The position numbers and the translations under genes were made by a program. From NCBI GenBank assembly GCA_944388565.1, contig CALXJG010000003.1, positions 409-64,408 of the forward strand: DNA of 64,000 bases. The letters run 5' to 3'. This stretch comes from an uncultured Clostridia bacterium (GTDB lineage Bacteria > Bacillota > Clostridia > TANB77 > CAG-465). The notes under the pieces were generated by a model that had not been told where the DNA came from, searched no databases, and was given only the letters and a program-made list of their open reading frames with translations. Shown piece by piece: positions 1,431-42,329 of this stretch (the stretch's first letter is position 1; every line of letters begins with the position of its first letter).

Positions 1431-1669
1431 AATTTTCTTTTGTTTCTTATCTACTGTTAGCATGTTATATTAATATAATACTCTCACCTCCAAGTAAGAA
1501 TATTATACAACATGAACATTTGTTTGTAAATGCTTTTTATCCTACTTTTCATCGCAAGTTTCGACAAAATTTAAAATTAGCTTAATTTTATATCATTTTT
1601 TTACAAAATAAATTTTTTCTATAACATAAAATAATAGACCTGGTACTATTAGTATCAAGTCTTTATATC

Positions 1670-2953: not shown

Positions 2954-3631
2954 TCAATCACTTTTTAAGAATTCAAAAATAATTTTATTTATACTATTTA
3001 ATGCCTCTTGTAAAAATTCTCTAAATTCTTTTTTACTTCCTTTATCTGATATTGCACGAATCGCACAAAAATCAACATGATTTAATGCACATACGTGATT
3101 TATAGCAGCTGTTTCCATATCAACAGCAATAGCATTAAATTTATCTTTTAACAGTTCTTTAGTAGTACTTTCTTCAACAAATTTATCAGAGGAAGCAATA
3201 ACTCCAGTTATAGCATTATTATCTTTATTTGAAATATCATATATACTTTTTACTAACTTTTCATTACACTTTACTAATACTTTTTCAATTCCAAAAGTAT
3301 ACCCAAGTTCATATCCAAGAGCTGTTGTATCATTATCAAATTCAACCGTAGCACTACTTATAGCAATACCACCAATATCAAGTTTAGAACTAATGCCACC
3401 TGCAACTCCAACATTTAATATATATTTTATATCAAAATTTTCTATTAAAAGTTGTGTACATATTGCAGCATTTACTTTTCCTTCTAAACTTTGAACCAAT
3501 ACTACATCTTTATTATATAACTTTCCAATATAATATACAAATGGTCCAATTTTATTTTCTTTAATTTCTTGTAATTTATTAAGTAATAGAGCTATTTCTG
3601 ACTCCATTGCACCAATAATTCCAATATACAT
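2954..3631 (-). CDS. mtnN: 5'-methylthioadenosine/S-adenosylhomocysteine nucleosidase
   Basis: 225 aa. IGIIGAMESEI N-terminus and the VDMETAAI motif are typical of MtnN/Pfs. Confidence 0.85.
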   Translation of the reverse strand: MYIGIIGAMESEIALLLNKLQEIKENKIGPFVYYIGKLYNKDVVLVQSLEGKVNAAICTQLLIENFDIKYILNVGVAGGISSKLDIGGIAISSATVEFDNDTTALGYELGYTFGIEKVLVKCNEKLVKSIYDISNKDNNAITGVIASSDKFVEESTTKELLKDKFNAIAVDMETAAINHVCALNHVDFCAIRAISDKGSKKEFREFLQEALNSINKIIFEFLKSD

Positions 3632-14762: not shown

Positions 14763-16061
14763 TTATTTAAGTACATTCCAGTGTCCATTTTTATTTGCTC
14801 CTATACGTTTAATATACTCTTTATTCTTTAAGGAACGCAAAATTTTATTAATATAGGATTCACTATAATTAGTTAATTTCATAAAATCACTAGTTTTATA
14901 AGTATTATTATCTTTTATTAAAGATAATATTTTGATTTCTGATTCATTTAGATCTAAATATATACTTTCCACGTTAATGCCATCCAATAATTTTTTGTTA
15001 AGTGGTAAAGTAACAATCACAGTGTGCTCACTAATATAAAAAGCTTTCTTTCCATAATTTTTAACTATCAGTGGAATACCATGCCCGGTTTGATCGATAT
15101 AATCTAAATCCGAGAAAATTTTCAACAGCTTTTTATTAATAGGTTTTGAAACTCCTGCAAAAAAGTCTTCTTTTGTTAATGCTGATGGTAAGCCTCCATT
15201 TGATACAATTTCTATTCTATCATCATATATATAAACAGCAGGTGGAATTTCTTCAGACCACTTTGTGTGGATACAAGCATTTAGCCATGCTTCTTTAAAA
15301 GAACTAAAATCAAAGTATTTTTCTTCTTTTCTTTGAATTCCTCCAACTTTTACTTTTGTTTCATTTATGCTTTCCATATATTCTAAAACATTATTAACAG
15401 ATAACAACAAACATTTTCCACCATATTCAGTTCTTTTCAACATTACTGCTTTGTCTAATCCCGCAAAAGTCACTACTTTAATAGATATATCATTAGAGTC
15501 TGCTAACAACTCAGCCATAAAATTATATTTACCATCATTTGTCTTTAATCCTAAATTATCCTCAAATTTTTCATTATTAATTCTAATATCGTTCGATATA
15601 TATAATCCTTTTAACATCTTAAATGTTAGATTTTGATTAGATGCTAATTTATTAACTATATAATCTGGTTCTCCCTCTCTATTTATTAATGCTTTTAACA
15701 TTTCTGGAGAAAGTCCTCTATCCTCATCGAATGATCTACTATAATATTTTCCAAATGCTGAATATGGAATATCATTTCCCTTTGCAAACACTTTAATAAC
15801 CTTTTTGTCTCCTATCAATTCTAATGCTATATTAGGAATTATTTGCGGTTTTATGCCTTCAGCTATCTTTCTTGATATATCTCTTAAAGTATTTTCATTT
15901 AAATCTTTTTGTCCTATTACGTCTCCATTGTTTTTTACTCCAAAATATACTGTTCCTTCTCCATGTTTATTCAACATAGCTGATAATGATATTACTCCTT
16001 CAATAATTTCGCTTGTACTCTTTTTAAATTCTACTTTTTCTGTTTCCATTCCTAAATTCAT
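14763..16061 (-). CDS. AlbA_2 (Schlafen-like) DNA-binding domain protein with C-terminal winged-HTH; often mis-annotated as RecG-like
   Basis: 432 aa. The N-terminus ETEKVEFKKS....GEGTVYFGVKNNGDVIG is typical of AlbA_2/divergent AAA-4 proteins. The C-terminal IKRIGANKNGHWNVLK is a wHTH module. Confidence 0.6.
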   Translation of the reverse strand: MNLGMETEKVEFKKSTSEIIEGVISLSAMLNKHGEGTVYFGVKNNGDVIGQKDLNENTLRDISRKIAEGIKPQIIPNIALELIGDKKVIKVFAKGNDIPYSAFGKYYSRSFDEDRGLSPEMLKALINREGEPDYIVNKLASNQNLTFKMLKGLYISNDIRINNEKFEDNLGLKTNDGKYNFMAELLADSNDISIKVVTFAGLDKAVMLKRTEYGGKCLLLSVNNVLEYMESINETKVKVGGIQRKEEKYFDFSSFKEAWLNACIHTKWSEEIPPAVYIYDDRIEIVSNGGLPSALTKEDFFAGVSKPINKKLLKIFSDLDYIDQTGHGIPLIVKNYGKKAFYISEHTVIVTLPLNKKLLDGINVESIYLDLNESEIKILSLIKDNNTYKTSDFMKLTNYSESYINKILRSLKNKEYIKRIGANKNGHWNVLK

Positions 16062-16589: not shown

Positions 16590-16754
16590 ACATATTATTT
16601 ATATCATATTTTAATTAAAAAATATATTTAAAGATAACATCTGACTAATACTATCCCATTACAATTTTTACACATTATAAAATTACAACATACTTTTTTA
16701 GAAATTCATTTTTTGACTTCTATTATATGTTTCTAGTGCTTTAGTTTGAATTTC

Positions 16755-17088
16755 TTATATATGCTTATTGCAAAAGTGATATTGACTAATTAGAATTTGC
16801 TTATATTTTTCACTTTCTTTATTTATATCAAAATTTATAAGTTCAGTATCATCTACTTGAATCATATTATTAAAACCTAACATACCATATTTATCATCGT
16901 ACATTTTAAATATAAATATATTATTTTTTAGTTTTTGGTGTGCTAGTCTTGGATTGTTCTAGTGGTACAAAATAATTAAAGCCATTTACTTTCAATATAA
17001 TTCCTAAATATGCTCTTTTTTCAGTATATTCATCTTCTACTACCATAACTTTAAATTCTTTTGAGTAGGTTTTTCTCTTATTTCCCAT
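16755..17088 (-). pseudogene. ToxN/AbiQ-family (type III) toxin pseudogene
   Basis: Frame 1 gives MGNKRK...RAYLGIILKVNGFNYFVPLEQSKTSTPKTKK*. A shifted frame continues IFIFKMYDDKYGMLGFNNMIQVDDTELINFDINKESEKYKQILISQYHFCNKHI*. This is collinear with the intact toxin at 40696-41136 (FIGILFKIENCEYFAPLSSPKPKH, LGAVNFNNMIPV, EQKYQKMLIEQLDWLNAHY). It is frameshifted and 3'-truncated. Confidence 0.65.
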
Positions 17089-17096
17089 AAAAATAC

Positions 17097-17143
17097 CCCC
17101 TTAAAGTATACACCTCTTTTTTATTAGTGTCTACTTTAAGGGG
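17097..17143 (-). terminator. 17-bp hairpin directly upstream of the ToxN pseudogene start
   Basis: ccccttaaagtatacac / gtgtctactttaagggg with one mismatch. On the minus strand a TATTTTT tract follows, then the ATG at 17088. Confidence 0.6.
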
Positions 17144-39859: not shown

Positions 39860-40294
39860 TTAATTATTTACAAGAAAACTTATTTCATATATAAAAAATA
39901 ATATAAATACAATCACATGTATAACTATATCAAATATTATTATTCTTTTTAAGTTTTTTATATTATTTCTTTTAATTTTAATTATTAAGAATATTCTAAA
40001 TAAAAATTCAAATATAACAAATAAAATCATATATCCAAAAGGACAAAGAATATATGATGGATCTTCAAATACTTGTTTTATATTTGCAATATACCTTGTT
40101 CCACCACAAAGAGGACAATCCTTACCTGTTACTTTTTTATATACACATGTTGTAAGTATTGGAGAAATATGCGACATTAATTTTGCAAAAATAGGGAAAA
40201 AAATTACATATATTGACAATAACAACATAGTTATATTTAAATACATGTAATTTTTAATATTTCTTTTTTTACTAATCAATATTATATATTCCAA
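39860..40294 (-). CDS. DUF2752-like membrane protein
   Basis: The GKDCPLCGGTR motif followed by TM helices. The start codon is uncertain. Confidence 0.55.
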   Translation of the reverse strand: MEYIILISKKRNIKNYMYLNITMLLLSIYVIFFPIFAKLMSHISPILTTCVYKKVTGKDCPLCGGTRYIANIKQVFEDPSYILCPFGYMILFVIFEFLFRIFLIIKIKRNNIKNLKRIIIFDIVIHVIVFILFFIYEISFLVNN

Positions 40295-40590
40295 TCATAA
40301 TCTTCCATATTGTCTTGTAATTGATTATTTATTTCTTGTTGTAATGTTTGATCACTAAAAGCTACTCCAAAAACGAATAACCAGAAAGTAATTATGATAA
40401 GAGAAATTGCTGTTAAAACAGTTCCTGCAATAGCCATCCCTCTTGGTTCTTTCTTTTTAGTTTTTAAGACAATATCTACAATACCAAGAATTAATCCTAT
40501 TATAGCTGGAAAATATGCTATCGCTCCACATAATGGAATAAAACCAACTATTATAGAAATGATTCCTAAAATTAATGCTGCAACTCCCAT
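40282..40590 (-). CDS. DUF4190-like small membrane protein
   Basis: 102 aa. GVAALILGIISIIVGFIPLCGAIAYFPAIIGLILGIV. Confidence 0.55.
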   Translation of the reverse strand: MGVAALILGIISIIVGFIPLCGAIAYFPAIIGLILGIVDIVLKTKKKEPRGMAIAGTVLTAISLIIITFWLFVFGVAFSDQTLQQEINNQLQDNMEDYDWNI

Positions 40591-40695
40591 ACAAAACTCC
40601 TCCTTACATACTTATATTATATACTATACAAATAATAATGTCAATTACAAATAACATTATTTTTGCTATAGAAATTAAAATTTTACAAAAATTAA

Positions 40696-41136
40696 TTAAG
40701 GTATATACTCTTTACATTTTTCTTCTAAAAGTTTAAAATTACAGCATCTTATTTTTATGTTCTTTGGTAATTTATCATTAATATAAAGATTATATAATTT
40801 AAAAGATTTACTTTTTATTTGTCTATAATGGGCATTTAACCAATCTAATTGTTCAATTAACATTTTTTGATATTTTTGTTCTGATTCATTAAAAGCTGGT
40901 TTATTTAAATTTACTATAGCATAATTATTTTCTCTAACTGGTATCATATTATTAAAGTTTACTGCGCCTAACTCTCCATCTTTTATTTTAAGAAAGTCTA
41001 TAGTAGCTTTCATAGTTTTATGTTTTGGTTTTGGACTAGATAAAGGTGCAAAATATTCACAGTTTTCAATTTTAAATAATATACCAATAAATGGTCTTAA
41101 TTCTTTTTTATTTTTATACATATAATAAAAACACAT
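40696..41136 (-). CDS. toxN: Type III toxin-antitoxin system ToxN/AbiQ-family endoribonuclease toxin (short N-terminus)
   Basis: 146 aa. RPFIGILFKIENCEYFAPLSSPKPKHK and LGAVNFNNMIPV are motifs I recognise from ToxN/AbiQ. It is preceded by a repeat array and a terminator. Confidence 0.8.
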   Translation of the reverse strand: MCFYYMYKNKKELRPFIGILFKIENCEYFAPLSSPKPKHKTMKATIDFLKIKDGELGAVNFNNMIPVRENNYAIVNLNKPAFNESEQKYQKMLIEQLDWLNAHYRQIKSKSFKLYNLYINDKLPKNIKIRCCNFKLLEEKCKEYIP

Positions 41137-41165
41137 AAAGATTAGAGGTTATTCCCCTAATCTTT
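41137..41165 (-). terminator. Hairpin between the antitoxin repeats and the toxin start
   Basis: aaagattagagg-ttatt-cccctaatcttt. On the minus strand its end abuts the toxin ATG. Confidence 0.7.
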
Positions 41166-41168
41166 ATC

Positions 41169-41275
41169 TTTTTTAAGTTCCAATTTATGGCTGGATACAC
41201 CGCTTTTTTTAAGTCCCAATTTATGGCTGGATACACCGCTTTTTTTAAGTCCCAATTTATGGCTGGGTTCACCAC
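41169..41275 (-). ncRNA. toxI: ToxI-like type III antitoxin RNA: three tandem 36-nt repeats
   Basis: Units are 41169-41203 (35 nt), 41204-41239 and 41240-41275. The transcribed-sense unit is GCGGTGTATCCAGCCATAAATTGGGACTTAAAAAAA. Confidence 0.75.
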
Positions 41276-41345
41276 TTTTTTCTACTATTAAGTAGTAATA
41301 ATATTATATGTAATAAAATTTATAAATACTACTATTTATAGTAAT

Positions 41346-41373
41346 ATTATATCATATTCTTTATTTTTTTCAA
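41346..41373 (-). promoter_or_regulatory. Putative sigma-A promoter of the type III TA locus
   Basis: Minus strand reads TTGAAA, 16 nt, TATAAT, with a TG extended -10. It lies ~65 nt upstream of the repeats. Confidence 0.5.
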
Positions 41374-41408
41374 TCGCTTTTATAAGATTTTATGTTTTCT
41401 AGTATATA

Positions 41409-42329
41409 TTACTCCTGCTCCATAAGAACTGGTATTATTTGTTTCTTACGTGAAACAACTCCTTTTAAGAAAGCAGTATTATTTTCTAATTTAACATTAT
41501 ATGCAGACTCTGTTATGTATGCTTTTTTACCTAATACTATAGCTTGTGAATTGCTATTTATTATATCAGTTATTGCAAAAAAGAATATATCTAAATTCTT
41601 TTCTTCAATTACTTTTTTCATTTCTTCTTCTATTTTATCTTTTCTTTTCATCATATCTTCTATAGATGCTGTATTTACTTGAGCTATTATAGCTTTTGAA
41701 TTTTTTAGCATAACTTCTTTTGCATCTAAGTTAATTAATTCTAATTCAGTTAAATCAGATAAGTCTGTTCCAGCTTTTAACATTTCTAATCCATATTTTT
41801 CCACATCAATATTTGCGATACTTGCTAAATCTTTAGCAGCTAATTTATCATCTTCTGTGCAAGTTGGTGATTTAAATAATAATGTATCAGAAATTATAGC
41901 ACTAAGCATTAATATAGCTTCTTTTCTTTCTATTTGCATATTATTTCTTTTAAATTCTTTATATAATATAGTTGATGTACAACCAACTGGTTCTGCTAAA
42001 TAATATAATGGTTCTGCTGTCTTAAATTCACAAATTCTATGATGGTCTACTACCTTTTTTATTTTTGCATTTTCTATATTATTAACACTTTGTGTAAATT
42101 CATTATGGTCTACTAATATAACTTCTTGTTCATCATCTATACTTTCTATATATCTAGGTTCTTCTATATTAAGATAATTTAATACATATTTTGTTTCTTT
42201 GTTTATATTTCCAAGTCTTACTGCTTCTACATCTAACCCATTATTTTTTTCAAATTTTTCTTTTACTAAAGCTGAACATATACTATCTGTATCAGGATTT
42301 TTATGTCCAAAAACTAATATTTTACTCAT
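41409..42329 (-). CDS. ppaC: Manganese-dependent inorganic pyrophosphatase (family II, DHH)
   Basis: 306 aa with FGHKNPDTDS, VDHH and DHHR motifs. Confidence 0.9.
   Translation of the reverse strand: MSKILVFGHKNPDTDSICSALVKEKFEKNNGLDVEAVRLGNINKETKYVLNYLNIEEPRYIESIDDEQEVILVDHNEFTQSVNNIENAKIKKVVDHHRICEFKTAEPLYYLAEPVGCTSTILYKEFKRNNMQIERKEAILMLSAIISDTLLFKSPTCTEDDKLAAKDLASIANIDVEKYGLEMLKAGTDLSDLTELELINLDAKEVMLKNSKAIIAQVNTASIEDMMKRKDKIEEEMKKVIEEKNLDIFFFAITDIINSNSQAIVLGKKAYITESAYNVKLENNTAFLKGVVSRKKQIIPVLMEQE

Follow-up and report, generated by a model that had tools for sequence, protein, structure and literature searches.

The analysed window, a stretch of 64,000 nucleotides (nt) on contig CALXJG010000003.1 of an uncultured Firmicute of the gut that is known from metagenome assemblies, carries on its minus strand a locus (40696..41373) that belongs to the ToxIN/AbiQ family of type III toxin-antitoxin systems. 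It consists of a promoter-like site, a leader, an array of direct repeats, a terminator-like hairpin and an open reading frame (ORF) of the ToxN toxin family, arranged as follows:

41373..41346, minus strand: promoter-like site of the antitoxin array (putative function), TTGAAA, 16-nt spacer, extended -10 TGATATAAT
41282..41345, minus strand: AT-rich leader of about 64 nt from the promoter to the first unit, with two short palindromes
41169..41275, minus strand: ToxI-like antitoxin array of three units, 41275..41240 (36 nt), 41239..41204 (36 nt) and 41203..41169 (35 nt)
41167..41125, minus strand: intrinsic-terminator-like hairpin and tail GTGTTTTTAT (stem-loop 41167..41135), 14 pairs including one G-T, 5-nt loop
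41117..41106, minus strand: deletion junction, the sole remaining copy of the 12-nt direct repeat ATAAAAATAAAA, from DNA alignment to locus L001
41136..40696, minus strand: ORF of 146 amino acids (aa), a 5'-truncated toxN remnant whose residues 8-146 correspond to 29-167 of a 167-aa ToxN
41409..42329: ppaC, the upstream neighbour, family II pyrophosphatase-type with DHH and DHHA2 domains

The promoter-like site agreed with the consensus at 11 of 12 positions and carried the TG extension; promoter-like sites overall were not enriched in this AT-rich stretch (12 vs. 9.3 expected), and this one was identical in loci carrying the intact allele described below. Analysis with Tandem Repeats Finder gave the array a period of 36, 3.1 copies, 94% matches and a score of 198 (41169..41281), with units of the pattern G(C/T)GGTG-NNN-CCAGCC-ATAAAT-TGG(G/A)ACTT followed by A6-7. 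The promoter-proximal copy had three substitutions, and the toxin-proximal copy one substitution and one A fewer. Both promoter-like site and repeats were as given in a preliminary description of this DNA, which had also listed a 12-bp hairpin with an ATG directly abutting it. The hairpin is present, with no other terminator-like site in the region (0.2 expected), but its stem has 14 pairs rather than 12; the 146-aa ORF begins there and carries the FAPLSSPKPKH and NFNNMIPV motifs reported for it, but its ATG overlaps the stem, sharing the last two bases. An identical hairpin was found in the intact allele of L001 (2765..2797).

The 146-aa ORF matched the Pfam family ToxN_toxin (PF13958) at 1.5e-38 (132.9 bits vs. 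a cut-off of 25) and the PADLOC model AbiQ at 6e-31, which upheld the family assignment of the preliminary description. The Pfam match spanned profile positions 25-159 only, and alignments to ToxN structures in the PDB (6e-15 to 1e-12) began at ToxN residue 31-45. No NCBIfam model matched either the remnant or the full-length protein. Promoter, tandem repeats, terminator and toxin constitute the published layout criterion for type III loci (PMC3401426), and the order of the locus agreed with it, with a putative promoter ahead, the direct-repeat array (36 nt, 3.1 copies) immediately upstream of the toxin and a palindromic terminator (14-pair hairpin and T-run) between the repeats and the toxin gene. 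A complete fold including beta1 and alpha1 was absent from the window ORF but present in its intact relative, and the window ORF had no translation start of its own downstream of the terminator.

A homologue search returned two near-identical kinds of protein, one of 146 aa starting MCFYYMY and one of 167 aa starting MILNFKIVIVNSEYCDYLRRFDNKVSY (P0007 and others). P0007 and the window ORF were 100% identical across the shared 139 residues, and by tblastn residues 29-167 of P0007 fell on window 41115..40699, again with 100% identity. The two forms shared the context der, plsY, ppaC, toxN and a DUF4190-like gene. Alignment of the DNA showed that exactly 268 bp, present in the intact allele between the terminator and codon 28, are missing from the window. 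In L001 the segment was bounded by two copies of ATAAAAATAAAA, at 2815-2826 and 3083-3094 and hence 268 bp apart; a single copy was left in the window and in 11 other loci, with flanks otherwise virtually identical. Lost with the segment were about 175 nt of spacer, in which a promoter-like TTTACA-17-TATAAT (11/12) lay, the ribosome-binding site AAAGGAGGAG and the first 27 codons including the ATG, and with these codons beta1, alpha1 and the conserved YCDYLR motif. The deletion, its junction and the content removed could be read directly from the two alleles. Because the gap is bounded by short direct repeats, it was likely caused by replication slippage or microhomology-mediated recombination between them.

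The short N-terminus, which the preliminary description had regarded as an unusual feature of the toxin, and the position of the ATG against the hairpin are both products of this deletion, in which 27 conserved codons were lost. Residues 1-7 of the remnant (MCFYYMY) are the terminator U-tract and the next bases read in frame, the 3' arm of the stem and the U-tract providing the ATG and codons 2-5, and an in-frame TAA lies four codons upstream of the ATG. No properly spaced Shine-Dalgarno sequence was present before this ATG or before Met6 (the 25 nt upstream of the ATG read ATTAGGGGAATAACCTCTAATCTTT), while the native start of toxN and the genes next to the locus all have GGAGG-type sites. Neither the missing N-terminal codons nor the coding portion of the 268 bp gave a convincing match elsewhere in the window. 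The short toxin is a truncated remnant and not a compact variant.

Scanning one genome per species gave 484 relatives, of which the best 80 were studied. In 77 of these, tblastn showed a ToxN that is uninterrupted, about 167-170 aa long and homologous at the N-terminus; the full-length form is the ancestral one and is constrained. Eleven of the first 28 positions, among them YCDYLR, were at least 95% conserved. The nearest copy in a species-level genome, an uncultured Clostridia metagenome-assembled genome, was 81% identical. In an AlphaFold (AF2) model of P0007 (predicted local distance difference test, pLDDT, 77), beta1 comprised residues 6-10 and alpha1 residues 12-19, and the model superposed on the structures of ToxN_Pa, ToxN_Ec, ToxN_Bt and AbiQ with template modelling (TM) scores of 0.71-0.73; the family profile aligned to ToxN_Pa residues 2-161. 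The segment is part of the fold in Escherichia coli ToxN, where Phe3, Tyr10, Ile11 and Leu14 stabilise the hydrophobic core and the pairing of beta1 with beta2 has been described as crucial (PMC8860590).

Other irregularities were seen among the relatives. A first ORF survey had suggested about ten disrupted toxN genes in the 80 species loci, which proved to be an artefact of allowing only ATG starts, as many use GTG or TTG. Two species-level genomes (L052 and L087) had an in-frame stop near residue 105-111 of toxN in an otherwise typical locus, constituting further independent inactivations, and toxN of L088 ended early at residue 149. In two other species toxN carried a +1 frameshift near codons 26-28 (L098, 1441-1540; L100, 107-200), in the A-rich TATAATAAAAAT stretch that is one deletion endpoint of the window; the arrays of both were still present, with one L098 unit altered at an invariant C. 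Array and toxN were about 236 nt apart in the intact alleles (L001-L005, 2798-3000) and likewise far apart in L057 and L074, compared to 60-110 nt in most related species. Gaps of 232-340 bp at other toxIN loci have been reported and left unexplained (PMC3401426). Since the extra sequence of the intact alleles holds a second promoter-like site, toxin transcription in them may depend only in part on terminator read-through.

The deletion is both real and frequent. The exact 146-aa product was indexed in 184 collection blocks, compared to 82 for P0007, and the same junction was present in all 12 short-allele loci that were read. The deletion allele occurred on several flanking haplotypes that were also seen with intact alleles, and either recombination or recurrent slippage could explain this sharing.

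Two more properties singled out as unusual in the preliminary description concerned the array, namely its three units and the A-tract at the end of each. In some 70 related loci the unit is 35-36 nt long, belongs to the same sequence family and ends in A5-7, and the arrays have about 3.2 copies of it. Published toxIN loci have means of 38.1 nt, 2.8 repeats and a toxin of 168 aa (Blower et al., 2012; PMC3401426), with ranges of 31-62 nt and 1.9-5.6 copies (PMC3401426, Table 2), and A-rich junctions are the usual context of ToxN cleavage, as in the three studied systems (AA↓AU, GAA↓AU and AAA↓AA; PMC8860590). With the deletion explaining the short toxin, and with three units and an A-tract being the norm, the supposed novelties of the locus fall. 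By analogy with the studied systems, the A-tract would be the site at which the RNA is processed.

An RNA alignment of 89 distinct units from related loci was used to examine the proposed H-type pseudoknot, with GGU:GCC as helix 1 and (U/C)CCA:UGG(A/G) as helix 2. Pairing was found in 98.4% of cells, compared to at most 69.7% in shifted registers. One pair of helix 2 alternated between U:A (69 units) and C:G (19 units), and another showed a single A:U to G:C change; helix 1 was invariant in all 89 units, so that covariation cannot test it. The units are thus compatible with a pseudoknot of the ToxI type whose A-rich ends are single-stranded, as judged from their sequences, although compatibility is not proof. 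No Rfam family was found for the repeats, either in a permissive scan of 40000-42000 or in a gathering-threshold scan of the whole window; weak matches to U3, small nucleolar RNAs and microRNAs were rejected as chance matches. Phage records contained no copy of this array, and ToxN homologues with 34-46% identity occurred in a few records of Clostridium, Clostridioides and Fusobacterium phages. Upstream of the array, the leader formed local hairpins in the RNA fold. Its two palindromes, TACTATAAATAGTA and CTACTTAATAGTAG, made up a period-15 signal at 41293..41350 (Tandem Repeats Finder), and a related palindrome, TTGCTAGAAATAGCAA, stood at the equivalent place in L014 and L098.

Taken together, the locus in the window is very probably a chromosomal ToxIN/AbiQ-family module, deprived of the 5' part of its toxin gene, that is now decayed and probably inert. 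The intact allele runs from the promoter-like site through three 35-36-nt ToxI-like units, the terminator, a spacer of about 200 nt with the second promoter-like site and a strong ribosome-binding site to the 167-aa ToxN, an endoribonuclease. By homology, the upstream promoter would transcribe the array and the terminator would end most transcripts, ToxN being made from read-through transcripts and perhaps also from the second promoter-like site. ToxN would then cut the repeat precursor in the A-tracts between units, as in studied ToxIN systems, and single pseudoknotted units would bind and inhibit it until phage infection upsets the balance. In the window, the deletion between the ATAAAAATAAAA copies has removed the spacer with its second promoter-like site, the ribosome-binding site and the first 27 codons of toxN, the ATG among them. 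By chance, the remaining toxN codons share the reading frame of an ATG in the terminator stem, which gives rise to the apparent ORF; this ORF is most likely not translated, or its product would be unable to fold if it were. We infer that toxin function has been lost. The array may still be transcribed but, as part of a non-functional remnant, would be free to decay. A working abortive-infection module, as implied in the preliminary description, is doubtful for the window allele because the toxin is truncated and its signals are lost.

Decay of this kind was apparent within the population. Whereas all five intact-allele loci had three clean units, the 12 deletion loci, which are related by descent and hence not independent, had three units in five cases, two in five and one in two, counts that may be wrong where short-read assemblies collapse or expand tandem repeats. 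Seven of these 12 had substitutions at unit positions invariant in the family (CCAGCC to CCTAGCC, or ACTT to ATTA). The toxN remnant of short alleles had missense changes at G39, the cis-peptide Gly of ToxN (77/77 conserved), at H60 (76/77 conserved; to Q and, independently, to Y), at C152 (77/77 conserved) and at I128, which was changed to K at a position that is always I, V or L. The erosion of the array and the missense pattern, taken together, are what relaxed constraint on both partners after toxin loss would produce. Polymorphisms in the remnant were nonsynonymous in six cases and synonymous in one, a ratio inflated by the retrieval of several loci (half) through variant proteins, whereas those in der and plsY were mostly synonymous; the ratio of nonsynonymous to synonymous change (dN/dS) was set aside as evidence for this retrieval bias and only the changes at invariant residues were used. 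With overall divergence of about 0.2-0.5%, the absence of stop codons from the remnant says little.

The limits attached to these counts (the inflated ratio, the shared descent of the loci and the uncertain repeat numbers) weigh against decay, and several further points do so as well. The ORF keeps R14, S33, S34 and K36, the equivalents in the 2xd0 alignment of the catalytic-site residues Lys33, Thr52, Ser53 and Lys55 of ToxN (for their roles see PMC8860590). It is open, and its 139 shared codons do not differ from those of the intact allele, so that some residual activity is possible, and read-through of the terminator would place it on a transcript. The antitoxin promoter and the three units of the window are intact. 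Finally, the deletion allele outnumbers the intact one (184 vs. 82 blocks), and selection for something other than simple loss could underlie that frequency.

One way in which such selection could act is that the toxin is dead while the promoter and the ToxI array are selected as an orphan antitoxin against a paralogous ToxN or an incoming ToxIN element. We consider this unlikely. Promoter, leader and terminator were identical between the alleles, the window keeps its three units and the deletion allele is frequent, all of which count in its favour. Phages can evade ToxIN through ToxI mimics, which indicates that free ToxI is biologically active. However, deletion-allele arrays were down to two or one units and mutated at positions invariant in the 89 units, and arrays that shrink and mutate point to relaxed rather than maintained constraint. 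In addition, the 64-kb window contains no intact ToxN of this specificity, its only other ToxN-like sequence is a pseudogene without repeats, and the array was found in no phage record.

In a variant that we regard as quite unlikely, losing the N-terminus and translation signals of ToxN would itself be advantageous and explain why the deletion allele outnumbers the intact one, and the retained array or a weakly expressed ToxN core without beta1 and alpha1 would have acquired a new role. If so, the advantage could lie, for example, in avoiding phage-triggered or self-inflicted suicide, and the new role could be that of an immunity RNA that acts as antitoxin alone against ToxIN elements entering the cell, or of a non-toxic ToxI-binding protein.

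A working and unusually compact module, in which the ATG at the base of the terminator serves as the start of a naturally short ToxN of 146 aa and read-through sets the ratio of RNA to toxin, is very unlikely. The strong ToxN_toxin and AbiQ matches, the retained catalytic-site equivalents, the open frame and the spread of the allele over 184 blocks would all fit, and the hydrophobic CFYYMY might conceivably replace beta1. However, the 146-aa form is derived from the 167-aa form by the 268-bp deletion, it has no ribosome-binding site and an ATG within the 14-bp stem, and the conserved beta1/alpha1 segment with YCDYLR is gone, when the full N-terminus is kept in 77 of 80 species. Array erosion and mutation of invariant residues were moreover specific to the deletion allele. 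A natural short ToxN subfamily had been considered on account of P0026 (148 aa), P0067 (150 aa) and P0080, all of 147-150 aa, but P0026 and P0067 turned out to be the +1 frameshifted genes of L098 and L100, which callers had restarted at an out-of-frame ATG, and not members of a short subfamily; P0080 was not inspected. That the gap is an artefact of assembly, or a rare mutation private to one sequence, is almost certainly wrong, since, although its junction lies in low-complexity, A-rich sequence where an assembler could err, the identical junction occurred in 12 loci assembled independently from different samples with different assemblers, on several flanking haplotypes, and the exact protein in 184 blocks.

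Among characterised systems, the best PDB match of the full-length family profile was ToxN_Bt from Bacillus thuringiensis pAW63 (PDB 4ATO; 1e-28, residues 10-171), which likewise has a Gram-positive host. The ToxIN_Bt array is short, with about three repeats of a length in the mid-30s of nt. Its toxin cleaves in an A-run (AAA↓AA; PMC8860590), in agreement with the A6-7 junctions of the window array. In contrast, identity to ToxN_Bt was only about 30%, the repeat sequence was unrelated, the window locus is chromosomal, between ppaC and a membrane-protein gene, and the window toxin is without its first 27 codons and translation signals. ToxIN_Pa of Pectobacterium atrosepticum pECA1039 (PDB 2XD0/2XDB/2XDD), the founding member, has the same order as the window (PMC3401426). 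The two also have in common a repeat of 36 nt and the toxin fold (TM score of 0.71 for the P0007 model). ToxIN_Pa differs in being plasmid-borne and in having more repeat units than the three of the window, and the window ORF aligns to ToxN_Pa only from residue 33 on. Its array comprises about 5.5 units. AbiQ/antiQ of Lactococcus lactis pSRQ900 (PDB 4GLK), the namesake of the PADLOC model matched by the window ORF, is a type III abortive-infection endoribonuclease system with a short repeat array from a low-GC Gram-positive host; AbiQ was more distant in sequence (5e-4 for the remnant, 8e-15 for the family profile). Blower et al. (2012; PMC3401426) already described type III loci in which the repeat array is full but the toxin gene only partial, and the window locus is in the same state. 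Those examples were cptIN loci with toxins of 45-101 aa, whose origin was left unresolved in that paper (PMC3401426), whereas here a single species shows the intact allele, the exact junction and the erosion that followed.

The main value of this finding is a correction: what appeared to be a novel compact ToxN is a truncated gene that should be annotated as a pseudogene, and gene callers and protein databases already list the 146-aa "protein" in many entries. One gut species with both alleles, and with arrays at different stages of erosion, also provides a natural time series of the decay of a type III module. The relatives form a large and very uniform ToxIN subfamily in uncultured gut Clostridia and Bacilli, with about 3.2 units of GCGGTGAATCCAGCC…TTGGAACTT-A6, which could be used for experiments on RNA-protein specificity. 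The subfamily is large but of known kind, and the window copy is a pseudogenised member of it, since the complete fold and a translation start of its own are missing.

Regarding the neighbourhood, the preliminary description had placed the locus between ppaC and a DUF4190/DUF2752 membrane pair. A ppaC-type gene and two small membrane-protein genes downstream of the toxN remnant (the nearest at 40282..40590) were confirmed, but the DUF4190 and DUF2752 matches of the latter stayed under the Pfam cut-offs (24.1 vs. 35 and 23.6 vs. 27 bits, respectively). Between the remnant and the DUF4190-like gene, a promoter perfectly matching the consensus (TTGACA-17-TATAAT, 12/12) was located at window 40616-40644 on the minus strand, and no terminator was detected in this interval. 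In one deletion-allele strain (L006, 3547-3756) the DUF4190-like gene was called at 69 aa compared to 102 aa, which suggests a lesion.

The other ToxN-family sequence of the window (16700-17088, minus strand) is a more degraded pseudogene. A 55-aa ORF (16921..17088) matched ToxN_toxin profile positions 15-60 with 32.1 bits and an out-of-frame fragment (MYDDKYGMLGFNNMIQV…) matched positions 74-119 with 37.2 bits, with stop codons between and after the two. No tandem repeats survive upstream of it, where only a 17-nt inverted repeat was found (17097-17143). Just downstream lies a gene for a 432-aa protein (14763-16061, minus strand) with Schlafen AlbA_2, HATPase_c_4 and C-terminal winged-helix domains, which may belong to a small islet with a defence or regulatory role.

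A promoter-like TTTACA-17-TGTATAAT and, upstream of it, a conserved TTTGTCGAAAYTTGCGATGAAAA box characterise an element of about 90 nt that was present both in the window (1494-1585, minus strand) and in L001 (2827-2912), the two copies being about 85% identical. The L001 copy lies in the toxN-proximal spacer of the intact allele, which is deleted in the window. The window copy lies about 90 nt downstream of a tRNA (1673-1743) and upstream of a gene with a BRO-N domain (408-1178), and the element may be a dispersed promoter/operator module.

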